From: Microcoleus sp.
GTDB taxonomy: Bacteria > Cyanobacteriota > Cyanobacteriia > Cyanobacteriales > Microcoleaceae
Direction of reading: 5' to 3'
Length of the DNA stretch: 64,000 bases
Assembly (NCBI GenBank): GCA_042408215.1
Contig: JAYFMW010000010.1
Coordinates: 111,963-175,962 of the forward strand
Shown one piece after another: positions 10,030 to 31,155 of the stretch. Under the pieces are notes generated by a model. That model saw only the letters and a program-made list of their open reading frames with translations. It was not told the origin of the DNA and ran no database searches. Positions within the stretch are counted from its first letter, which is position 1. Each line of letters begins with the position of its first letter. A program made the translations under genes and the position numbers.

Positions 10030-13000
10030 TTAACCAACTTGAGTTAGCCGCGTACCGCACTTAGCACAGAATTTCGAGCTAGTTGGATTTTTGTGGCCGC
10101 AGCTAGTACAAAACACAAAATCTTGCTGAGGTACTGTCGGCGGTTGAATTGGCGCTGGCGAAACACCGCCAGGAGGATTAATGACAGTAGTAGTAGTATA
10201 AATTCCGTCCAATTTCTGAGTGACTCCGGTTTCATTTGCTAGAGGCGAAGTTGGATTTAAACTACCAGCCCCCGGTGGCAAAAACTTGTAAGTTTCTATC
10301 ACCTCTTGAATAATCTTGACCTCTCGTTTATAAACAGGACTATCTTTTCCTCCTTCTTTATCTAATTCCGTCTCCCGCACATCAAGATATGCTGTCAATT
10401 GACCGTATAACTGTTGTTTTTGTGGCACTGTTTCCGCCCCATTCAGGATTGCAGTCACCTGTTTTTGAATCTCTTCCTTATCAGGACGACAGGCCACAAC
10501 TGCCAAAACTTGCACCGTTTCTTCCCAGCTAGAAGCAAGATCTACATTCTCTTGACCCAGCACAGTTTTTACCGTGTAGCGGATCGCTTTTTCCTTCGTA
10601 TTGCGGTTTTCTTCTGGTCGCAAAACCCGTAATGCTCGTGCTTGCACTACCAATTTTAAAATTTTCTCATCCTCTGGAAATACATCCCAAAAAGGCGCTT
10701 CTTTTTGAATATGAACTGGGATAGGAGCATCTTTGCTTTCTCCCCGTGCTTGTGCTCTTTTTGCTTGGATTGATTGGCCTTTCCAATCTTGATAAGATTG
10801 TTGCAATTCCCGCATTCCTTCAATACAGCGCAGCGAAAAACCGCCAACTTCTTGCACAAAAACAATCCGGTGGCGTTCCGCTTCTCCCAGCGGGGTAATT
10901 GCATCGCTACTACCCACCCGTTCTCGGATCAAAGGAATTAATTTGATGGCGGCTGCTTCAGTGCTGTTACGCCCACCAACCAGGGCTGCTTTGGTATTGA
11001 GTGCTGGCGTAAAGCCCGCATCTTTGCCCCTCATTATCGGCTCGGAAAGCAAAATTAGGGGTTTAGATTTATTGTAGGCGATCGCCAATTGACTGCGGAT
11101 GTCTGTTTCATCATTTTTAAACATTTTGTACAGTCCATCACAGGCTGCCAAATCTCGCTTCAAGCGACTGCTGTTAGGTGCATTATTGATGACTAACCGC
11201 GTTTTTTCATCAATAATTTCCTTGAAATCTGGATCTTGCACATCCTGCAATTGCGGCAAATCAAACAGTCGCATCACCTCATCCGCCTCCCGGTTTTGTT
11301 TCCACATCGGACTAGCTTCTGCGAGCACTTGCTTCGACAAATTGCTGCAAGTTCCGTCCATCCCCAATTCATACTTGCTTTTCGCACCTTCAGAAGCACC
11401 TGCTAATTGCTCGATCGCATCTCGGTACAAATCATTTAGCTGTTGACGGTCAAACAATTTGATACCATTAATTACCAACACATCAGCACTACTTGCTTGT
11501 TGGTCTGCTGCTTTTTGAAAGTCATCACGATTTTGGCGCAACTTTTGATTTAAGCGAGCCAAACGGCTTTCTAACTCTGTTAAATGCTCTTGCAGCCTGA
11601 CAATTACTTCCAATCCCAAGGATCTCGATTTGCGCTGAATAATTGCAATCAAACTCCCCTCTAACCCGCTGATAGCCGTAGCACAATACTTTTCCATAAT
11701 GTCTTGTTTGCTCAAACCAAACTGCTCTTGGGAGTGTCTAATATCTTCCAAACCCTTTTGGTATTGTTGCTGGAAACGAACCTCATTTGGCTCCCAAACT
11801 TTTTCGGCTTCCCGGCGAAACTTTTCCACAGCATTTTGAAAAATCTGTCGCACTGTGGTGATAAAAGCATCAGCAAATTTCGGCCCTTTGTTGCGGTCTT
11901 CAAGAATCGTATAAAACTCAGCTTCTAGGGTTTTGCGTCCTTCTTTGATAATCCGGTTGCGGTTGTCATACATTTTTTGCAAGTAATCGCCATGTAGTCG
12001 CTCGTCGGGACTCATTTCACGCAGGTGATCGTTGCGATATTCCTCAACTTTTTTCTGCAAGTAATTGACAAATTCTAGAATTTTGCCTTTTTCCGATCCG
12101 AAAATACCCAAGAATCCTTGTTGAGTGGATTGCAGTTTGTTATCTGCATTAATTTCATTACGGATACTGTTTACCCAGTTGGAAAGTTCTGCTAAATAAG
12201 ACTTATCGCCCGCAGCACTCAAATCTGTCAACATTTCCATTTCTGTCAGCCGAATCCGCTTGAGGTCACTTTGTACAACCTCCAACAAATTGGGAACTAA
12301 TACCACAGATTCGTTCAGCCACCAACTCACAAAATCCGCCGCTAGCCGATTGGATAAAGATGTGCGAATCTGGGCGATGGGAATTTCAATTGTGGACAGC
12401 CCAAAACTCATAAATTGTTTGGAATAGCCGCGGCCACCAGGGTCTGCTTGGGCCCAAGAACCTTTAATATTATCTCGGATCGATCGCTTGTGGGGAGCAA
12501 AATCTGAGGTCAAGTCCAGAAAGATATTCTGACCGATCATTTCCCGAATTTGGTCGAGGGGAAATTCAGTTTCACCGTTTTTAGTTCCGACTAAATAAGT
12601 GAAGTCAAAAGCAGGTCTTTTGTCGCGGATTTCATCGATTAAACCAGCACTATACTGCACTGAATACTCTGTACGGTAGTCGGAGAAATAGCTCAATTCC
12701 ATTAGGGCTGCGTAGCCGTTAGCTAAAACCCGATCGCCTACATTGATACCAGCAAAAGCATTAGGCATCGGCACAATGGCTGTAGTGGTAGGACTTGACT
12801 GTCCTTGTAGCCACTTGCGGACAGCATAGCCGATATCGATGAGCATCCCGCTGCCGGTACCGCCAGAAATTGAGCCGGTGATAAACACGTTTACGGAGTT
12901 ACTGTTTACCTTGACGTTATATTTGTCCAGCATAAAAGTGTCGTGACCTTTTACGCGATCGCACGCTGAATTAAATGCTTGTTTAATCTTATGATAGTTG

Positions 13001-13383
13001 TGAAAAAATGCAAATCGACCGCAGGCACGAATCTGTCCGGCTCCCGCTTCTAAAGCCGTCATATTTCGCTCTAATTCATTGGGAAACCAAGCTTCAATCC
13101 AGGGGAAGTTGTCCATGTTGGACATGATATTTTCAACTTCATTACCGCTGACTTTAGCAAAGTATTTCTCGTTGTCCTTAAATGGAGTTCCACCCGCACC
13201 AGGATTATTTAGTTTGTATTCTTTGTCTGTGTCAATTACCAGAAAACTAATAATCGGAAAATTCTTCAAACTCCCATAAGTTTCTTCTACTAAACGGCGC
13301 ACTCTTGCCAGCACTTCATTACCCGTTCCTCCTACTCCGATTAAAACAGTAGGAACCATACTTTTTTCATCAACAGTAGCCAT
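10030..13383 (-). CDS. tubulin/FtsZ-like GTPase (Tubulin_2-type) with long helical region and C-terminal zinc ribbon
   Basis: VLIGVGGTG, IDTD, GAGQIR and SISGGTGSG signature; CTSC...CAKC at the C-terminus. Confidence 0.88.
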   Translation of the reverse strand: MATVDEKSMVPTVLIGVGGTGNEVLARVRRLVEETYGSLKNFPIISFLVIDTDKEYKLNNPGAGGTPFKDNEKYFAKVSGNEVENIMSNMDNFPWIEAWFPNELERNMTALEAGAGQIRACGRFAFFHNYHKIKQAFNSACDRVKGHDTFMLDKYNVKVNSNSVNVFITGSISGGTGSGMLIDIGYAVRKWLQGQSSPTTTAIVPMPNAFAGINVGDRVLANGYAALMELSYFSDYRTEYSVQYSAGLIDEIRDKRPAFDFTYLVGTKNGETEFPLDQIREMIGQNIFLDLTSDFAPHKRSIRDNIKGSWAQADPGGRGYSKQFMSFGLSTIEIPIAQIRTSLSNRLAADFVSWWLNESVVLVPNLLEVVQSDLKRIRLTEMEMLTDLSAAGDKSYLAELSNWVNSIRNEINADNKLQSTQQGFLGIFGSEKGKILEFVNYLQKKVEEYRNDHLREMSPDERLHGDYLQKMYDNRNRIIKEGRKTLEAEFYTILEDRNKGPKFADAFITTVRQIFQNAVEKFRREAEKVWEPNEVRFQQQYQKGLEDIRHSQEQFGLSKQDIMEKYCATAISGLEGSLIAIIQRKSRSLGLEVIVRLQEHLTELESRLARLNQKLRQNRDDFQKAADQQASSADVLVINGIKLFDRQQLNDLYRDAIEQLAGASEGAKSKYELGMDGTCSNLSKQVLAEASPMWKQNREADEVMRLFDLPQLQDVQDPDFKEIIDEKTRLVINNAPNSSRLKRDLAACDGLYKMFKNDETDIRSQLAIAYNKSKPLILLSEPIMRGKDAGFTPALNTKAALVGGRNSTEAAAIKLIPLIRERVGSSDAITPLGEAERHRIVFVQEVGGFSLRCIEGMRELQQSYQDWKGQSIQAKRAQARGESKDAPIPVHIQKEAPFWDVFPEDEKILKLVVQARALRVLRPEENRNTKEKAIRYTVKTVLGQENVDLASSWEETVQVLAVVACRPDKEEIQKQVTAILNGAETVPQKQQLYGQLTAYLDVRETELDKEGGKDSPVYKREVKIIQEVIETYKFLPPGAGSLNPTSPLANETGVTQKLDGIYTTTTVINPPGGVSPAPIQPPTVPQQDFVFCTSCGHKNPTSSKFCAKCGTRLTQVG

Positions 13384-16469: not shown

Positions 16470-18122
16470 GTGTTCAGCCTAGTTCAAACCACTTCTCGCC
16501 AAGGAGAAATCCTAGAGGTCGTCTTCCGCAACGGTTGGGACTACATGAAAAGCCTTCTCACCGGCAGCAAAACCGACGCACCCAGTCTCCCAACCCCAGC
16601 AGTTCTCCGCAACATCCTCGTCGAATTAGGCCCCGTTTACATCAAATTGGGCCAATTGCTCAGCACCCGTCCCGACCTTTTACCCGCCGCCTACATCGAC
16701 ACCCTCTCCTCTCTACAAGCGGATGTGCCGCCCGTACCGTGGTCAGAAGTAGAAGCAATCATCCGCAAGGAACTCAAACAGTCGATCGAAGAAACCTTCT
16801 CCAAACTTAATCCTAAAGCAGTCGCCGCCGGCTCGATCGCCCAAACCCACAAAGCCACACTAAAAGACGGCCGCCAAGTCGCCCTCAAAGTTCAGCGTCC
16901 AGGTATTGATATCATCATCGAACAAGATATCGCCGTCCTCAAAGGTTTAGCAGAACTCGTCAGCCTCACAGACTTCGGTCAACAATACGATATCATCGCC
17001 CTAGCAGAAGAATTTGGCACAGCATTAAGAGCAGAACTCGACTTCATTCAAGAAGCCACATACACCGACGAATTGCGGCGCGACTTATCAACAAGCCGCT
17101 GGTTCGATGCCAAACAAATCGTAGTCCCAGAAATTCACTGGAACCTGACTACAAAAAAACTCATGGTAATGGAATGGCTCAACGGCATACCCATTCTATT
17201 AGGAGATTTGCAAGGCACTGCTTACCAAGGAAATATAGAAGCAGAACGTCAAGCAGTCAGCACACTTCTTTGTCGAGTATTCTTTCAGCAGTTTTTCATC
17301 ACCGGCTTCTTTCACGCCGACCCCCATCCAGGCAATATATTTTATCTCAATGACGGTCGCTTAGCCCTATTAGACTGCGGTCTAGTCGGTCGCCTCGACC
17401 CGCGCACTCAGCAAAATTTGACAGAATTACTATTAGCAATTGTCGATTTAGACGCTCAGCGGTGCAGTCAGTTAACCGTACAAATGGCAGAATCTGCCCA
17501 GCCAGACAGTCTATCTCAGCTAGAAAATGATTACTCGCGACTACTCCGCAAATATTACAATTTGAGCTTGTCACAAATCAATTTTTCGGAAGTGTTTTAC
17601 GAGATTCTGCAAGTATCCCGCGAGAATAAAATCAGACTGCCGAGCAATTTGGGTCTATTTACCAAAACGATGGCTAATTTAGAAGGAGTAGCCCGCGCTT
17701 TCAACCCCAGACTGAACATTTTAGATCAGATTAAACCTTTAATGACTGATTTGTTTCGGCGTCAGTTATTGGGAGATGATCCGCTGCAAGCTTTGTTGAG
17801 AACAGCCCTAGATATTAAAAGTCTGTCTTTGCAATCTCCCCGGCAATTAGAAGTGCTGTTAGACAGAGTTACTTCGGAAACTTTGAAATGGAATTTAACT
17901 CTCAAAGACCTCGATCCGCTGCGTCGCAGTTTGGATGATTCTGCGAACCGACTTTCTTTTAGTATTGTAGTTGGTTCCCTGATTGTGGGAGCGGCAATTG
18001 TTTCTGCTAATGCTCAAACTGCTCAGTTATCTTTTTTGAGCAATAGTTTGTTTGCAGCTGCGAGTTTTTTGGGTTTGTGGTTAATTATTAGTATTCTCAG
18101 GTCAGGGCGTTTGCGGGGATGA
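16470..18122 (+). CDS. ABC1/AarF/UbiB family kinase
   Basis: LGPVYIKLGQLLSTRPD, AAGSIAQ.H, KVQRP, HADPHPGN. Start taken at in-frame GTG 16470, after GGAGG. Confidence 0.92.
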   Translation: MFSLVQTTSRQGEILEVVFRNGWDYMKSLLTGSKTDAPSLPTPAVLRNILVELGPVYIKLGQLLSTRPDLLPAAYIDTLSSLQADVPPVPWSEVEAIIRKELKQSIEETFSKLNPKAVAAGSIAQTHKATLKDGRQVALKVQRPGIDIIIEQDIAVLKGLAELVSLTDFGQQYDIIALAEEFGTALRAELDFIQEATYTDELRRDLSTSRWFDAKQIVVPEIHWNLTTKKLMVMEWLNGIPILLGDLQGTAYQGNIEAERQAVSTLLCRVFFQQFFITGFFHADPHPGNIFYLNDGRLALLDCGLVGRLDPRTQQNLTELLLAIVDLDAQRCSQLTVQMAESAQPDSLSQLENDYSRLLRKYYNLSLSQINFSEVFYEILQVSRENKIRLPSNLGLFTKTMANLEGVARAFNPRLNILDQIKPLMTDLFRRQLLGDDPLQALLRTALDIKSLSLQSPRQLEVLLDRVTSETLKWNLTLKDLDPLRRSLDDSANRLSFSIVVGSLIVGAAIVSANAQTAQLSFLSNSLFAAASFLGLWLIISILRSGRLRG

Positions 18123-18227
18123 ATGGCACAAGATTAGTATATGTTCAGTCCTGGACGCATTTGAACGTAATTCTGTCATTCTGAGTGAAACGAAGAATCT
18201 CAAAGCTTTGCAACAGCGTCTAGAGTG

Positions 18228-18309
18228 CGTAAATCCTGTGTGTTGTGGAACAGGCATCTTGCCTGTTCCGTAAATCCTGTGTGTTGTGGAACAGGCATCT
18301 TGCCTGTTC
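18228..18309. repeat. exact 41-bp tandem duplication containing GGAACAGGCATCTTGCCTGTTC hairpin
   Basis: Units at 18228-18268 and 18269-18309. Confidence 0.9.
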
Positions 18310-18474
18310 CTAAGAATGCTGCAAGATGTAATATCAAATCCGGTAGCATCGGAATTATTCATCTCTCTCTTCTCTCCCTCTGCGCCCTCTGCGCCCTCTG
18401 CGGTTAAATCATTCCGATGCAACCGGAAACGATATAACATATAGCCAAGTGCAACAAGCGAACAAATATAGCCT

Positions 18475-21400
18475 ATGTCACAGCATAATTATTCTCTCCC
18501 AAAGTCAGCAATTAGAGACAACCGCCACCGCGAAACTGTGGGCGATTTTTTGAAAGCCAAGGTTGAGGAAAACTCAACCTTGTCAATTGTTTCTGCTTAC
18601 TTTACAATTTATGCATTTGATGCCTTGAAGGAACAACTTCTAGGCATTAAAAACTTGAAATTCCTGTTTGGCGAACCGCGCTTCATCAAGTCCCTTGACC
18701 CCAGTAAAACCGATAAAAAGGCATTCCAAATTGAGGATGAGGGCTTGCAGCTACAGAATCGGTTGCAGCAAAAACGGGTTGCGAAAGAATGTGCAGAATG
18801 GATTGAGAAAAAAGTGCAGATACGGTCGGTCAAGCAATCTAATTTACTGCACGGCAAAATGTATCACATTGCTCATAACGGAAGCGAAAATGCTATTATG
18901 GGCAGTTCTAATTTTACCATGCGGGGACTGGGATTAGGCAGGAAAAACAACAATATTGAACTCAATTTAGAAGTAGATAGTAAACGAGATAGCCACGACA
19001 TTAAAGCCTGGTTTGATGAACTCTGGAATGATGCCGAACTGGTCGAAGATGTCAAACAAGACGTGCTCCTGTACCTAGAGCAACTTTACCAGAATAATTC
19101 TCCTGAATTTATCTACTACAAAACTCTGTTTCATATCTTCGAGACTTTTCTAGATGACCTAGAAAAAAGCGATATTCTCAGCGAACAGCTACACCTATTT
19201 GATACAGAAATCTGGAAATCTCTATTTGAATTTCAAAAAGACGGAGTTAAGGCCGCTATCAATAAAATCCGACGATATAACGGGTGTATTATTGCTGACA
19301 GCGTTGGTTTAGGTAAAACATTTGAAGCTCTAGCGGTGATTAAATATTTTGAACTTCGCAATCAAAAAGTTTTGGTTCTTTGTCCCAAAAAACTCCGCGA
19401 GAATTGGACTGTATATCTAGCACAGAACAATAGCGAACTGAATCCTTTTCTTAAAGACGGCTTTAACTATGCAGTCCTATCTCACACCGACTTGAGTCGT
19501 GACTCTGGTTACTCTGGGGACATTAATTTAGCAACGATTAAGTGGGGAAACTATGACTTGGTAGTTATTGACGAATCCCACAATTTCCGCAACAACATCA
19601 AGAGTAAACGGGACGAATTTGGCAATCTAATTAGAAAGAGTCGTTACGAAAGGCTGATGGATGATATTATCAAGAGCGGTGTCAAAACTCAGGTGCTACT
19701 CTTATCAGCAACTCCGGTTAACAATGATTTAAAGGATTTGCGGAATCAACTTTATTTTATCACAGAAGGTCGCGATGCTGCGTTTAGCGAATCGCTGGGA
19801 ATTGCTAGTCTGCGCGATACACTAGCTGATGCTCAGCGGAAATTTACCAAGTGGGCTAAGAAAAGTCGCGATCGCAAAACTAGCGAACTCCTGGAAGAAC
19901 TAAGTTCTGCTTTCTTCAAACTGCTTGACCAATTGACGATCGCCCGATCGCGCAAGCACATTCAAAAATACTATAAAGATGCGATCGCCCAATTAGGCGG
20001 CTTTCCAGAACGGCTCAAACCCATCTCCGTATTTCCTGACATTGACCTAGAGGGTGAGTTCATGTCCTACGAACAGCTTAACAGCGAAATTTCTAAATAT
20101 CAACTCTCGCTATTCAACCCTTCAAAATATGTCCTGTCGCCATACCGTTCAGTGTATGAAAATAAAACAGGGCGAAATTTCAGACAGAGCGATCGCGAAC
20201 GGTGTTTAATTGGTATGATGAAAGTCAATTTCCTGAAACGCTTAGAAAGCTCCATTCGTTCCTTTTCGCTGACAATGGAACGCACAATTAACAAAATTGA
20301 ATATCTAGAGAAAAAAATTCAAAACTTTCAGCAATTTCAGCAATCTCGCGAGGCTAACCAGACAGTTATTTTCAGCGATTTAATGATTGAAGACTTCGAC
20401 GATGAAGAGTTGCAAGATGCCATGCAAGTAGGTCAAGAGCTGATATTTCAAATGGCGCACCTCGATGTCAAAACGTGGTTAAAAGACCTGAAATGCGACA
20501 AGGAACAGCTTAAAAAAATTTACAATTATGCCCAAAGCATTTCTGTTGAACGGGATGCCAAGTTAGCTGAGTTAAAAGCACTAATCGCCGAGAAAGTCAA
20601 GCATCCTACGACTAACAAGCATGGCCAACCAAATCGCAAGGTTTTAGTCTTTACTGCCTTTGCAGATACGGCAGTTTATCTCTACGAAGGATTGCGGGAA
20701 TGGGCAACATTAGAATTGAAAATTAACCTAGCTTTGGTGACTGGTGGTTCGGCGAAAAATAAGACTACCTTTGGCAAAAATGAGTTCAATCGCGTCCTGA
20801 CAAATTTTTCGCCTTTCGCCAAGAAACGCGCTCAAATTCCATCTATGCCACAAGACGGCGAGATTGACCTATTAATTGCCACAGATTGTATTTCAGAAGG
20901 GCAAAATTTACAAGATTGCGATTATCTGATTAACTACGACATACACTGGAACCCAGTCCGAATTATTCAGCGGTTCGGTAGGTGCGATCGCATTGGCAGC
21001 CCCAACCATACCGTACAATTAATCAATTTTTGGCCGACAGAGGACTTGGATCGGTACATCAATCTGAAAAATCGAGTAGAAGCACGGATGGCATTAGCGG
21101 ATATTGCTGGTACATTTGAAGATAACCTGCTGGAGGCTCTTGAGATTCAAGAATTGATTGAGAGTGATTTGAAATACCGCGACAAGCAGTTGCTGCGATT
21201 GAAAGACGAGGTGCTGGATATCGAAGATTTCACCGAAAGTGTCGCCCTAACGGAATTCAGTCTCGATGATTTCCGAATGGAACTAGCCAAATACATTGAG
21301 AGCAACCGCAAACTACTCCAAGATGCTCCTTTAGGACTCTATGCAATAGTTCCAACTAACTCGGAGTACCCGATCATTGCTCCCGGCGTAAATTTTTGCC

Positions 21401-21786
21401 TCAAACAGAAAGGCGATTCTCTTGATAATAAAACTGTCAATCTGCTGCAACCATATTTTGTAGTTTACGTGGGAGAAAATCAGGAAGTGCGATTAAATTT
21501 TGCTCAACCCAAACAAATACTTGAAATATACCAGTTGCTGTGCGCGGGATGTACTGTTCCCTATGAAGAGTTGTGCAACTTGTTCGATCGAGAAACTAAT
21601 AATGGATTTGATATGAATTTGTATAACGATTTGCTTAAGCGGGCGGTTGATTCAATTGCAGGTATTTACAACAAGCGGCTCATCGACAATCTGCTGTCTA
21701 GCCGCCGTGCTGTGTTGGTTGAACAAGCGCATCAGGTTAAAGCAACAACGGATTTTGAACTGATTACTTGGTTGGTGATTAAATGA
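18475..21786 (+). CDS. PLD-like nuclease domain + SNF2-type (SF2) helicase
   Basis: HGKMY..GSSNFT..NIELN (HKD-variant PLD); [33 protein letters not shown]. Confidence 0.9.
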
Positions 21787-23309
21787 GCGTCAGGGAACAA
21801 CAAGCCAAAGCATCTATTAATCAAGCTTTAAATAGTTTTGCCAAGGGAAAACTAGCCGATAACGCCCGGAATTTGTTCTTTGCTCTTGGCTACCGCAGTG
21901 ACAGAACGAGTCAATTTTATCCCAATACTTCGGATAACTTTATTGCGACTTTTGACATAGATCAAAAGCTCAACTCCCAAAAAGCTCTCTTAGAGGAATG
22001 GCTGTCGGTTGATTTTCTCTTCCAGTTTACCGGGACAGAAATTGCAGATAACGATCAGTTTGTCGAATTTGATAGTAGCAGTGGTGAGAGTGCCTTTTTT
22101 ACTTCCTACTTGTTTTTCGCGATCGCACTGCGGAGGAGCGCGTACACTATAGAACAACTTGACGGGATTATCCGCGAGATTAATCAACTTTTACCGATGC
22201 CTGCGATCGTTCTCTTTCAGCATGGAGAAACTCTGACTTTCTCCATGATAAACCGCCGCGCCAACAAACAAAATGAATCTGAAGATGTATTAGGAAAAGT
22301 CAAACATCTTAAAGATATCCCATTCGCCATTCCGACAAACTCTCATTTAAAAATGCTCTTCGATCTTTCCTTAGCACAGTTGTATAAAAATCACGGCTTT
22401 AGCAACTTTGACGAATTTCATGAAGCTTGGCATCAAACTATTCCTGACAGCATCAAATTTAAAGAAGATTCTCTGTGGCAAGATTCGCTTCGCGTTTACC
22501 TGCAAGAAATCGGTCGAATTCCCATGCTCAAAGCTGACGAAGAGATTGAACTAGCTCGTAAAATTGCTGAATTAGAATTAGAGGGCAGCCGAAAAGCTAA
22601 AGACAAAATGGTAGAGTCTAACTTGTGGCTGGTAGTCTCAATCGCTAAAAAATATCAAAATAGAGGGCTGGATTTCTTAGACTTGATTCAGGAGGGAAAT
22701 CTGGGTTTAATCAAGGCTGTAGAAAAGTTTGATTGCAGGAAGGGCCACAGGTTTTCCACCTACGCGAATTGGTGGATTCTTCAGGCAATTATGCTGGCGA
22801 TCGACAACCATTCCCGCACCATCCGGCTACCAGTTCATTTGTGGCGTACAATTTCCGAGGTTAAGCAAACTACCAAGCTGCTTTCTCAAGAATTTGGTCC
22901 CATTCCCAAGATGGAAGAAATCGCCAATCGTTTGGAAATGACAACTGCAAAAGTGCGCTTGGTTATTCAATCGGCTCTGCCTATCATTTCTTTAGATACT
23001 AGAATGGGTGAGGAGGAAGGTTCTACATTGGGAGAGTTGATTGAATTCGATGGGGAAACACCAGAAGACCAAGTATCGAAAAATTTGCTCCGCGAAGATT
23101 TGGAAAGTGTTTTAGATACTCTCAGCCCCCGAGAACGTGACGTGCTGCGACTGCGTTACGGCTTGGATAATGGCCGCGAGAAGAGTCTAGAGGAAATCGG
23201 CAATAGATTTAATGTTACCCGCGAGCGGATTCGGCAAATTGAGGCTAAGGCTTTACGAAAGTTGCACCATCTCAACCGCAACAGCATCTTAAAAGAATAT
23301 ATTCGCTAG
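21783..23309 (+). CDS. fusion: restriction-modification-enzyme-like N-terminal domain (aa 1-~225) + SigA-derived sigma-70 regions 1.2-4
   Basis: From aa 234: [73 protein letters not shown] overlap with the helicase stop. The N-terminal assignment is from recalled family similarity. Confidence 0.8.
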
Positions 23310-23770
23310 CTCTACAGCAATTGACTAAACTGAGACAAAAATACCGAAAAAAAAAGCAAGAGCTCATTACAAACATTTTCTGCTGTGCGATGTACTTAAG
23401 CACATCTCTGACTTAAGATAGGCGATCGCCCGCAACAGCTAAGTCTCAGCTAGAAACTGTTCGATCGACTATCTCTTCAGGAAAAACTGATGAGTAGCGG
23501 TTACGCCAGCCCTATGCTTCAGCAGCAATGACAGCAAATCCCGTAAGTGCGATCGGTCAACAATCCAACCAAATAAAGCCGCCAGTGCATTCAAGCAATT
23601 GAATAAACGCAGTCATTAGTTATGAGTCAGCAGTCATTAGTTATGAGTCAGCAGCTAAAAACTAATAACTGTGGCATAAAGCTGGCGGAAAAATAACATC
23701 AGCTAACAGCTAGCAACTAATCACCAATAACTAATGACTAATAACTAATAACTAATGACTAATAACTAAC

Positions 23771-28133: not shown

Positions 28134-31100
28134 ATGACTTTGAACAGGCGAATTTATCAAGTAATTTTACTGGTGGCGGGGCTGTGGCTAGTTTTAGAGT
28201 TAGTCTCCCGCGCTGTGGCAGAAATTCTCTGGTTTCAGGAAGTTGGATATCTTCAGGTTTTGCTGTTGAGGCTGAAAACTCAAGGGTTGCTGGGGGTAAT
28301 TCCCACTGCTATTTCTGCTGTTTTTTTGATGGGAAATTTGGCTTTAGCCCACAGCCTCAAACATCCCACTGAGGAAACCAAATCGCCGATTTCGGGGGGA
28401 TTATTCGCTTCAGTAAATCTGAAAAAAACGGGGAATAATTACCAATTATCTGTGGCTAAACCTCAACTTGCTTTTCCCTGGCTGCTGTTGTTGTTATTCG
28501 GATTGAGTTCGATCGCAGGTTTCATGGTAATTCACTTGGGGCTGTTAGCTGCGGGCGGCCTCGCCGATTTCAGTATAGCGCCACCAATTCAGTTGGGATT
28601 GGAGTCAATTGGGCCCATAGCCGTGCAGCTATTTTCTAATTGGTGGCAGTTTGGCGTAATGCTGGGGCTGATGTTAGCTGTGACAATTAAGCCGGATTTT
28701 TGGCTGCGGGCGATCGCCCTTTTTCTCAGTTTGGCGATCGGGCTAATTGCCGCCAGTCGTCTGGACAAAAGTATTGCCATATTTTCACCATCTTAATTTT
28801 AACATAAACGATCCTATTTTTAGTCAAGATATCAGTTTTTATATATTTGTTTTGCCAATTTTAGAGTTGCTAGCATTATGGCTGACAGTTATATTTTTGT
28901 ACGGCTTAGTATCAGGCACTTTAACATATGTACTTTCGGGAAACAGCTTGAGTCAAGGGATATTTTTGGGGTTTTCCCGATCGCAGCAGCGGCACTTGTA
29001 TGCCTTGGGTGCAGCTTTGATGCTAGCCTCCGCATTCCACTATTGGCTAGCCCGTTACGAATTGCTGTACTCACGGGGAGACGTTACTTACGGGGCTAAT
29101 TATGCTGACGTGACAGTGCGGCTGCCCTCCTATGGATTTTTGAGTATTTTAGCGGTGGCGATTCCCTTCGGGATAGCTTCGCTTCACGCACTTTTGACGC
29201 TGTGGCCAGTTTTGAATTTAAAACTGAAAAACCACAACTTAAACCAGATTATTTTTGGCTTTTTAATTTTCAATATTTGCTTAGGATGGCTACTGCCAAA
29301 AATTGTCCATAGCCTGATTGTTGAACCGAACGAACTAGCGCGGGAACGGCCCTACATCGAACGCAGCATCGCCTTTACCAAACAAGCATTCGACCTCAAA
29401 AAAATAGAAGTAAAAACCTTCGATCCAGCAGGCAAACTTACCTATGCAGACTTGGAAAAAAATCAGCTTACTATCAGTAATATCCGCCTGTGGGACAAGC
29501 GACCACTGCTACAAACCAACCGGCAATTACAACAAATTAGACCTTATTATAAATTCTTAGATGCCGATATCGATCGCTACACAATTAACAACGAATTTGC
29601 AAAACAGGGAGATACCCAAAGCCAGCAAGTGATTCTCGCAGCGCGAGAATTAGACTACACAGCAGTTGCGAGGGAAGCTCAAACATGGGTAAACGAACAC
29701 CTGGTTTACACTCACGGTTATGGCTTTACTCTTTCTCCTGTAAATACTATCGGTGCCGGCGGTTTGCCCGATTATTTTGTTAAAGATATTGGAGTTGATG
29801 CGGGCTCTGGCGAAAGTGCTTTAGAAATAACTAGCGATCGCATTCGGGCCAGTATTCCGATCGGAAATCCGCGCATTTATTACGGCGAAGTCACCAATAC
29901 CGACGTGATGACATCGACAAAAGTTAAAGAATTCGACTATCCCAGCGGCGAAGAGAATGTTTACAATACATACAACGGTAAAGGCGGAATTGCGATCGGC
30001 TCTATGTGGAAGCGCTGGTTATTTGCTAATTATCTCAAAAATTGGCAAATGGCGCTCACCCGCAATTTTACGCCAGAAACTAAGTTACTGTACCGCCGCA
30101 ATATCCACAAAAGAGTGCGAGCGATCGCTCCTTTTTTGCGCTACGATTCAGATCCATACTTAGTAGTAGCTAACGCCCATCTCAGTCCAGGCGATTTAAT
30201 AGAAAAAGAACGGGATAAAACTGCCAATAATATTCAGCATTTACCCTCCGTAACTCATAGTTCTCCCAACTATCTTTACTGGATTATAGATGCCTATACT
30301 ACGAGCGATCGCTACCCGTATTCCGACCCAGGAAAAAATAAATTTAACTACATCCGCAACTCAGTAAAAGTCGTCATAGATGCCTACAACGGCTCCGTTG
30401 ACTTCTACGTTGCCAACCCATCCGACCCGATAATCAACAGTTGGATTGCGATCTTTCCCGGACTGTTCAAACCCCTTGAACAAATGCCTCCGGCTCTCCG
30501 CAAACATATTAGGTATCCAGTAGATTTATTGAGCATTCAATCCGAACGCTTGCTAACTTATCACATGGAAGACCCCCAAGTATTTTATAATCGGGAAGAT
30601 TTGTGGCGAATTCCCAAGGAAATTTACGGCAACGAACAGCAGCCTGTGGAACCGTACTATTTGATTACAAAACTGCCAACAGAAACCTCAGAAGAGTTTA
30701 TTTTGTTGCTTCCATTTACCCCTGTAAGTCGGAATAATCTAATTGCTTGGTTAGCAGGTAGATCCGATGACGATGATTACGGAAAATTGCTGCTGTACCA
30801 GTTTCCCAAACAGCGATTAGTTTATGGCCCAGAACAAATAGAAGCTTTAATTAACCAAGAACCAGTCATTTCCGAACAAATATCTCTCTGGAATCGCCAG
30901 GGTTCAAAAGCAATTCAAGGAAATTTATTGGTAATTCCAATTGAACAATCGTTACTGTACGTTGAACCTCTGTACTTAGAAGCCGATCGCAATAGTTTGC
31001 CCACTTTAATAAGAGTCATTGTTGCCTACGAAAACCGGATTGTCATGGCAGAAAATCTCGACGAGGCGCTCAAAGCACTTTTTCAGCCTCAAGCTACCAA

Positions 31101-31155
31101 TAAACCCGCGATTGTTCGACCTGTAGAAGGAACGGCACCGGCTTTGAATCGATAA
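28134..31155 (+). pseudogene. UPF0182 family membrane protein, frameshifted near 28762
   Basis: WFQEVGY N-terminus in ORF 28134-28796; [32 protein letters not shown] and YVEPLYL in ORF 28747-31155. One extra base in AGT CGT C TGG ACA. Confidence 0.8.

Follow-up and report, generated by a model that had tools for sequence, protein, structure and literature searches.

A PLD-SNF2 helicase-nuclease gene overlapping an adaptor-sigma-70 fusion gene in Microcoleus

Genes at the locus

The stretch of DNA analysed here, called the window, comprises 64,000 nucleotides (nt) of Microcoleus sp. (assembly GCA_042408215.1, contig JAYFMW010000010.1, positions 111,963 to 175,962, forward strand), and positions are given within it. 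The window contains a pair of overlapping genes, the first encoding a helicase-nuclease, which has a PLD (HKD) domain and a SNF2-type motor, and the second encoding a protein of 508 amino acids (aa) in which a DUF4391-like domain, called here the N-domain, is fused to a sigma-70 module. An earlier note on this DNA, made from the letters alone, had described an intact PLD-SNF2 helicase overlapping a 508-aa open reading frame (ORF) by ATGA, and both ORFs are indeed present, with the TGA stop of the helicase overlapping the ATG of the fusion. The pair and the DNA just behind it have the following features.

18475..21786, + strand: PLD (HKD) + SNF2 helicase-nuclease, 1103 aa, intact (Pfam, PADLOC, family alignment)
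18754..19026, + strand: PLD-like nuclease domain, aa 94-184, with H126, K128 and GSSN (Pfam PLDc_2 3e-11, RE_NgoFVII 3.8e-6)
19231..20997, + strand: SNF2-type motor, aa 253-841, with SNF2-rel_dom at 253-432 and Helicase_C at 717-841 (Pfam)
21052..21783, + strand: conserved C-terminal region of the helicase, aa 860-1103 (identity across relatives)
21783..23309, + strand: adaptor-sigma fusion, 508 aa, short allele, in ATGA overlap with the helicase stop
21783..22457, + strand: N-domain, aa 1-225, DUF4391-like candidate adaptor (homology, model)
22482..23267, + strand: SigA-derived sigma-70 module, with region 1.2 at 22482-22574, region 2 at 22608-22817, region 3 at 22848-23072 and region 4 at 23109-23267
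23307..23309, + strand: TAG stop where a sigma factor naturally ends (alignment with long alleles and SigA chains)
23310..23347, + strand: remnant with homology to codons 1-12 of the extension in long alleles (alignment)
23368..23608, + strand: deletion scars, 23368-23514 resembling DNA just past the stop of the long ORF and 23508-23608 resembling the SRAP 3' end

The helicase matches the PADLOC model PDLC01075 ("HKD+Snf2") along its full length (E 4e-125) and retains all family-invariant columns of an alignment of 32 rows, including H126, K128 and N146 of the PLD motif, GLGKT and DESH. Its C-terminal region (aa 860-1103) shows identities of 66-93% among 120 relatives listed of 3375 matches. 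The structure model of the full-length protein is poor, with a mean predicted local distance difference test (pLDDT) of 46.1.

The C-terminal part of the fusion had been read as sigma-70 regions 1.2-4 with a SigA-like tail, and its first part as unlike sigma region 1.1; both descriptions stand. Pfam places Sigma70 region 1.2 at 234-264, region 2 at 276-345, region 3 at 356-430 and region 4 at 443-495, aa 1-225 belong to the DUF4391-like domain, and aa 227-508 align with the solved cyanobacterial SigA chains 8h3v_G, 9dvs_G and 8gzg_F, which match the strings quoted from the tail. The fusion and these chains share the C-terminal end ...LKEYIR and stop at the same residue. SigA residues 1-72, which form region 1.1 and a linker, are replaced by the N-domain, and a non-conserved region of ~21 aa between regions 1.2 and 2 is missing. 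The sigma module is 71% identical to SigA of the same genome, and the fusion scores 455.8 bits on the RpoD equivalog NF005643, below the cutoff of 500. No methylase domain was found with Pfam in the 508-aa protein or in the flanking ORFs scanned.

N-terminal domain and its methylase relatives

The N-domain has a sub-threshold match to the Pfam family DUF4391 (19.1 bits versus a cutoff of 29.9), and its relatives comprise 839 cluster representatives at E<=1e-3, with 135 at E<=1e-30. Among the 150 relatives listed of these 839, most are N-termini of proteins of ~1150-1370 aa. When 16 N-domain proteins were scanned, Eco57I was present in all six non-sigma proteins of at least 936 aa, five of which also have TaqI_C, and the others included two with TPR, one with an IS200-type domain and four without a Pfam family. 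Stand-alone N-domain proteins of 200-300 aa also exist. The methylases headed by the N-domain elsewhere have ~1250 aa, are of Eco57I type and are placed behind a helicase of this family; such canonical partners match the DrmMI models and the PADLOC REase_MTase_IIG models.

The genome that holds the window, which has 7.36 Mb in 30 contigs and is 99.98% complete, contains a canonical pair on another contig. Its helicase is 68% identical to that of the window, and the overlapping second gene encodes an N-domain, 42% identical to that of the window, followed by N6_Mtase/Eco57I. The resemblance to the N-terminus of Eco57I/type IIG-like methylases, which the earlier note gave from recall, proved correct, as the same domain heads methylase partners of this helicase family, and the homology to methylase partners of restriction-modification type is real. 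The proposal that a sigma factor has replaced the methylase while the adaptor was kept is supported in its anatomy by the scan of 16 proteins and by the canonical paralogous pair.

On contig C6, where the canonical pair lies, the helicase is intact (1117 aa) and the methylase (L009, 7316-10654, - strand) is broken just past NPPY, where indels of +1 and +2 lead to two stops. In some methylase-type partners (L054 6563-11377; L053 2494-7612; P0070), an IS200-like Y1 transposase domain separates the N-domain from Eco57I, and genome G133 has a split partner, with the N-domain in a protein of 710 aa and Y1_Tnp+Eco57I in another of 1087 aa.

The structure model of the N-domain is confident (pLDDT 91.2, predicted template modelling score 0.89). 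A Foldseek search of the Protein Data Bank (PDB) gave no match at E<=1e-3, and a profile search of PDB sequences gave 0 matches at E<=1. In a wider fold search, the N-terminal nuclease domains of the type IIG/IIL enzymes DrdV (7lo5, Z 4.9) and BpuSI (3s1s, Z 4.5) rank at the top, below the level that the tool considers clear, and the lower-ranked matches are other restriction-endonuclease-like folds, also below that level. The likeness to these enzymes is further limited in that a PD-(D/E)xK motif was not identified in the N-domain and the window protein has no methylase. A tblastn search of plasmids with the N-domain found no match at 1e-8.

Recurrence of the pair

The fusion does not stem from a chimeric assembly. 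Its 3' end and stop are bridged, with 0-5 differences, by contigs from three other studies (P2, P3 and P4), and those of P2 and P4 additionally cross both downstream deletion junctions; the bridging contigs are X2 (23061-23744, 2 differences), X6 (23072-23755, 5 differences) and X3 (23078-23418, 0 differences). RNA contigs from a single metatranscriptome cover 23088-23276 and 23360-23755, although contigs of this kind cannot show that the gene is transcribed. In a family-level set of 144 genomes, 78 of which are other Microcoleus, an orthologue of the fusion is found at the same site in 27 of these 78, with N-domain identities of 67-90%. A fusion unique to this assembly or lacking support in reads is at odds with both the bridging contigs and the 27 genomes of the genus.

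The gene order recurs as well. The helicase directly abuts the fusion in all 25 sigma-type loci with upstream DNA, window included, and a helicase is also upstream in 3/3 methylase-type loci of the sister genus. All ten larger loci share the order ABC1 - helicase - fusion - UvdE - SRAP, and nine of the ten extend to CP12 and glpX. In the pair-less genomes G038 and G047, ABC1-UvdE-SRAP-CP12-glpX is uninterrupted, so the pair is an accessory insertion. The flanks in the window are housekeeping genes, with an ABC1 kinase upstream and CP12-CBS, glpX and hemA downstream. UvdE and SRAP were considered as members of the system and were dropped, because the empty-site genomes show that both are backbone genes.

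Of 401 sampled genomes of the phylum, 19 from 12 genera carry the N-domain. Three Vampirovibrionia genomes (G251, G450 and G522) carry a PLD-SNF2 helicase followed by an N-domain-sigma protein, which extends the synteny looked for in the earlier note well beyond Microcoleus. G450 is recorded in one source as Candidatus Gastranaerophilales and its fusion has 667 aa; N-domain matches occur in 9 of 301 genomes of its class. The fusion of G522 has 600 aa and overlaps its helicase gene, and in G251 (L055, 1253-8672, - strand) two N-domain-sigma genes (526 and 758 aa) stand in tandem behind the helicase. The G450 sigma module is 52% identical to the primary sigma of its own genome versus 44% to the module of the window. 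A metagenomic relative, P0016, which is 58% identical, retains the canonical sigma motifs and the non-conserved region. In an N-domain tree built with FastTree, the separation of all sigma types from the rest has a support of 0.15, and that of Microcoleus plus methylase types from the Vampirovibrionia sigma types has 0.88; these values are compatible with one or two origins, and Microcoleus and Vampirovibrionia may have acquired the adaptor-sigma architecture separately.

Between the tandem G251 fusions, the sigma parts (aa 311-645 in the longer protein) share 41% identity, and a D12-class methylase fragment adjoins these genes. Next to the G522 pair (L061, 73-15291) are Gabija-like genes (AAA_15/OLD-TOPRIM and UvrD), a large serine recombinase and a ResIII/SWI2_SNF2 piece, a setting that suggests a mobile element with a defence island.

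Short and long alleles of the fusion

The 508-aa fusion described earlier exists as such; what had been missed is that it is the short allele of a longer locus. The commoner form has ~2450 aa and a STAND-type nucleoside triphosphatase (NTPase) extension, which runs on straight after ...YIR for ~1940 further residues. In a long allele of 2454 aa, AAA_22 is found at 1773-1910, and the C-terminal 800 aa of the extension resemble AAA_22/nSTAND1 clusters (atlas score 0.98). The allele of the window has no STAND/AAA_22-type NTPase domain, and this part is absent from all three Vampirovibrionia fusions too. PADLOC has no match for the extension, UvdE or SRAP. On contig C7 of the same genome, a 584-aa ChW-repeat protein (L050, 5215-6969, - strand) has an N-terminus 38% identical to residues 107-356 of the extension.

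Frame lengths among the 27 orthologues are 2372-2457 aa in 15, 1882-1886 aa in four, 941-971 aa in three and 544-549 aa in two; one has 481 aa, one has 880 aa and is cut by the contig end, and one is broken by stops. The long alleles lack 4 nt that contain the TAG stop in the window. Missing from the window are ~5.8 kb of extension, UvdE and most of SRAP, and neither UvdE nor SRAP was found anywhere in its genome with the protein queries used. The alignments to the remnant and the scars indicate that the window lost the extension, UvdE and SRAP by deletion. In relatives, UvdE and SRAP occupy the site corresponding to 23310-23608 in 10/10 loci and in the two empty-site genomes.

The short alleles of genomes G071 and G082 keep, behind the stop, a non-coding remnant of extension residues ~1045-1149. 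Since these remnants show that the extension was once present, the short forms are reduced ones, and the short allele as the ancestral state was dropped for this reason. It is possible that a stop at the natural sigma end is ancestral and that the extension was once a separate gene. Short alleles of the window's type (~506-511 aa) are also found intact in five further protein clusters, with 83-93% identity. The helicase end, the N-domain and the sigma segment give conflicting trees, and the four short alleles group in the sigma segment only; because of this conflict, the alleles are regarded as recombinant mosaics.

Selection and sequence change

The ratio of nonsynonymous to synonymous substitution rates (dN/dS) was calculated pairwise by the Nei-Gojobori method, and medians are given.

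Helicase: dN/dS 0.22 (n=11)
N-domain: dN/dS 0.31 (n=22)
Sigma part: dN/dS 0.43 (n=22)
ABC1, flanking gene: dN/dS 0.095 (n=9)
CP12, flanking gene: dN/dS 0.077 (n=9)

A ratio of ~1 had been taken beforehand as the mark of a chimera in decay, and the medians of all three parts of the pair are below it, with purifying selection on the helicase and the adaptor and a weaker constraint on sigma. Against 10 orthologues the helicase has dN/dS values of 0.20-0.25, and among short alleles the ratio of nonsynonymous to synonymous differences per site (pN/pS) of the N-domain is 0.28-0.45 (P<0.01). Within the sigma part, regions 2.1-2.2 show the fewest amino-acid changes (pN 0.02-0.03), the region 4.2 helix also has few, with TRERIRQIE retained by 21/22 orthologues, and regions 2.3-2.4, 3 and 4.1 have more. 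We read these values as showing a maintained helicase and adaptor and a sigma part that is kept only loosely, with the weakest hold in short alleles.

The changes in the sigma part of the window include R282W, R333L, T337M and R338L. The odd residues recur in P0003 and P0004, proteins of other samples that are intact at 508 and 509 aa, and P0015 (511 aa) shares only IMLAIDNH, with T337M and R338L. Because the intact P0003 and P0004 proteins share them, these residues mark an allele lineage and are not errors.

Similarity to known systems

Among the closest known relatives of the pair is an unnamed restriction-like one, formed by a PLD-SNF2 helicase and an Eco57I protein headed by a DUF4391-like domain, which has the same helicase family, the same adaptor on the downstream partner and the same overlapping gene order. 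Unlike in that pair, the partner in the window has neither the methyltransferase nor TaqI_C and has a sigma-70 module instead, with STAND added in long alleles. No experimental study of this parent pair was found in the literature searched.

Class 1 DISARM consists of the SNF2 helicase DrmD, the methylase DrmMI, DrmA, DrmB and the PLD protein DrmC. The best NCBIfam match of the helicase is DrmD (NF038317), and the canonical partner matches DrmMI models, as said above. However, the DrmD score is 160.3 bits versus a cutoff of 610, PLD and SNF2 are here in one protein, there is no methylase, and no DrmA/DrmB-like genes are in the flanks of the window pair.

RapA/HepA is a SNF2 ATPase that attaches to the RNA polymerase of bacteria. 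By profile, the solved chains nearest to the helicase family are those of RapA (E 5.7e-11), and the likeness would extend to a SNF2 motor tied to RNA polymerase; in contrast, RapA binds the polymerase directly, without a nuclease or a sigma partner, and the similarity is confined to motor motifs.

MANTIS/Gao_RL MtsD and type IV SauUSI likewise combine a PLD nuclease with an SF2 motor in one enzyme, which does its work downstream of a separate DNA-recognition module (bioRxiv 10.64898/2026.09.23.753747). MANTIS requires the AAA+ protein MtsA, MtsB and the methyltransferase MtsC with the effector MtsD, according to that preprint. It differs in that MtsA, MtsB and MtsC are absent from the flanks of the window pair and the motor here is of SNF2 type, nearest to RapA among solved chains.

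MzaA of the MZA system (NF041931, PDLC02203) is the only PADLOC match of the fusion (E 1e-57); this protein of a defence-type system, too, has a foreign N-terminal extension ahead of a full sigma-70 module. Only the sigma parts align (264-506 versus profile positions 422-667), with 296.5 bits versus a cutoff of 800; the N-terminal domains are unrelated by these searches, and no MzaB-E-like genes are near the pair. In the passages of PMC9523054 on the mzaABCDE system, mzaA is called its sigma factor. An N-domain-sigma partner of a PLD-SNF2 helicase was found described nowhere in the full-text literature searched; the passages retrieved from PMC12839542 and PMC8195603 concern other sigma-like domains. 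The arrangement, which recurs in distant lineages, hints at a link of restriction-type defence to transcription.

Proposed working of the pair

The reading preferred here, in which we place about even confidence, is that the pair is a genuine accessory module, descended from a widespread two-gene restriction-like system, and that its adaptor holds the sigma module on the motor nuclease. The parent system has an Eco57I-type methyltransferase/target-reader behind the PLD-SNF2 motor nuclease, and the DUF4391-like domain of this partner would be what connects it to the motor. The N-domain fits a docking domain because it is constant and the module behind it varies, being a methylase with a target reader, TPR, or sigma with or without STAND. 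In the derived form, the methyltransferase and target-recognition domain have been exchanged for a sigma-70 module taken from a primary sigma factor, with regions 1.2-4 kept and the adaptor occupying the place of region 1.1.

Docking is predicted to involve the C-terminal half of the motor nuclease. In a multimer prediction of the kind that the earlier note had suggested, the helicase half 560-1103 with N-domain 1-228 scored 0.54 versus 0.00 for the best control; predicted contacts agree at least 86% and the partner pLDDT is at least 80. In the calibration of this score at <=0.60, the mark was reached by 18/157 solved complexes and 2/215 mismatched pairs, and a pass of this kind is more often wrong than right unless the pairing is likely beforehand. 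Here the pairing is likely beforehand, because the gene overlap is conserved.

In sigma factors, contact with the beta-prime clamp helices is made by region 2.2, recognition and opening of the -10 element are due to regions 2.3-2.4, and the -35 element is recognised by region 4.2. Region 1.1 occupies the DNA channel of the holoenzyme and keeps free sigma from binding DNA. The pattern of change within the sigma part suggests that the module still binds core polymerase, via region 2.1-2.2, and perhaps -35-like DNA via region 4.2. As this conservation suggests core binding without normal promoter opening, a tether of the motor nuclease to RNA polymerase or promoters is favoured over other uses of the module. 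The motor nuclease would thus be coupled to RNA polymerase or promoters and not to a DNA motif read by a methylase, and the ~1940-aa STAND-type NTPase of long alleles would probably be a switch or sensor. The helicase-tethered transcription factor or promoter-guided nuclease of the earlier note is a candidate function. Anatomy, homology, synteny, recurrence, allele structure and selection pattern are observed, and from them we infer docking, RNA-polymerase binding and a defence role; the reduced allele in the window may still work, and it may be partly eroded.

Several observations weigh against this reading. The tryptophan pair before IRQ, ahead of the -10-reading helix, is altered in 9/22 orthologues, which makes normal promoter opening doubtful in many alleles. 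The five ordinary group-1/2 sigma factors of the genome agree at 84 invariant positions, of which 13 differ in the window's fusion, the most among the 22 orthologues, with 4-10 in the others, and three of its changed residues fall in the helix that we take to be the -10-element reader. In short alleles, pN/pS of the sigma part is 0.65-1.09 and not clearly below 1 (P 0.03-0.69). The locus also often erodes, as an open frame of at least 2372 aa is kept in only 15 of the 27 copies of the genus and stops occur inside the N-domain in G087 and G040. The N-domain fold matches are all under Z 5, and the predicted binding of helicase and N-domain is graded only as weak support. Finally, no methylase was found near the pair in the flanking ORFs scanned, so how the nuclease would spare the host stays unexplained.

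Alternative explanations

Fairly unlikely, and the strongest of the rivals, is the explanation that the allele of the window is an eroding, disabled leftover of the long system, in which the STAND part has been deleted and the rest is drifting, the helicase and adaptor not being visibly damaged yet. The state of the locus speaks for it in several ways: only 12 codons of the extension are left, as non-coding DNA, an adjacent deletion took UvdE and SRAP, and the sister short alleles G071 and G082 hold a non-coding remnant of the same extension. Decay is seen around it too, as the short allele of G102 is truncated inside sigma and the genome's canonical methylase paralogue is broken, and both the short-allele sigma ratios and the 13 changed invariant positions agree with drift. 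However, drift of a dead locus accords poorly with two intact ORFs, with the helicase dN/dS of 0.20-0.25 and an N-domain pN/pS of 0.38-0.45 (P<0.01), with an allele type of ~506-511 aa that is intact in five other protein clusters, and with distant lineages that keep a helicase and an N-domain-sigma protein without any STAND part.

The preferred reading can be narrowed to a transcription-coupled restriction, in which sigma replaces the target reader and takes the motor nuclease to RNA polymerase or promoter DNA, the variation of the -10-reading helix among alleles has the role of target-domain variation in restriction enzymes, and STAND gates the reaction in long alleles; this specific form is unlikely.

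A sequestered signalling sigma is a quite doubtful account of the pair. The motor nuclease would act as an anti-sigma, binding the fusion by its adaptor and freeing it for RNA polymerase on contact with foreign or damaged DNA, so that a response regulon is switched on. Every sigma region needed for holoenzyme formation is present, and region 2.2 and the region 4.2 helix are well kept, but variation of the tryptophan pair and the -10-reading helix in many alleles is unexpected for a sigma that opens promoters. Promoter-like sites are not enriched in the region either (6 found versus 10.0 expected), and promoter and terminator scans of the region were not above shuffles. A candidate regulon or a common promoter motif was not found, no search having been aimed at either. 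A defence system with a sigma protein does exist, as mzaA is so described in the passages cited (PMC9523054).

It is improbable that the sigma module is an integrated decoy, a bait for phage proteins that bind or hijack the primary sigma, whose binding would be sensed, through STAND in long alleles, and would activate the nuclease. Plant NLR decoys and phage T4 AsiA provide the analogies. The module does derive from a primary sigma, being 71% identical to the SigA of its genome, just as the G450 module is closer to its own primary sigma (52%) than to the module of the window (44%). It is also fused to a STAND-type NTPase in most alleles, evolves fast and belongs to mosaic alleles. The idea is nevertheless pure analogy, we know of no phage partner of the sigma module, and the short and Vampirovibrionia forms do without the STAND part.

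An ordinary alternative sigma factor that is merely beside the helicase, with a regulatory N-terminal domain unrelated to it, is very improbable, because its complete 1.2-4 module and a HIP1 (highly iterated palindrome 1) density like that of the rest of the window are outweighed by an N-domain almost confined to partners of this helicase family, by a helicase upstream in 25/25 sigma-type and 3/3 methylase-type loci and in three distant lineages, and by a pair that is present or absent as a unit.

Other features of the window

The five HIP1 sites named earlier (19868, 19981, 20189, 20984 and 22119) are all present. These five are the HIP1 sites in the 4.8 kb of the pair, and the window has 48 versus 0.66 expected by chance.

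A dispersed repeat of 105-109 nt is found at 18331-18439, just upstream of the helicase, and has 41 further copies in the genome with 86-100% identity; in G082 and G098, a copy is downstream of the fusion instead. A 112-aa ORF without a family match (18102-18440, - strand) overlaps this repeat. Another short repeat of ~55 nt, at ~23715-23770, has more than 120 matches in the genome, some of them in tandem arrays, and causes a depth spike and loose contig ends in metagenome runs.

Farther from the pair, a 1117-aa protein (10030-13383, - strand) has an N-terminal Tubulin_2 domain (PF13809, E 9e-110) and a C-terminal zinc ribbon. UPF0182 is split over two overlapping ORFs on the + strand, 28134-28796 and 28747-31155 (220 and 802 aa), which cover profile positions 4-119 and 117-770; the split may be a frameshift or an assembly error.

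Significance of the pair

Restriction-like systems normally find their targets by a methyltransferase/target-recognition subunit, which is here exchanged for a promoter-recognition protein. The natural allele series, which includes long forms with STAND, internal deletions, short forms, a methylase paralogue and the empty sites of sister species, is material for testing the parts of the system. If the pair is active, its sigma module could be a targeting device, a released signal or a bait for phage factors, and no description of any of these for this helicase family was found in the literature searched. An active pair would connect a restriction-type effector physically and directly with RNA polymerase.

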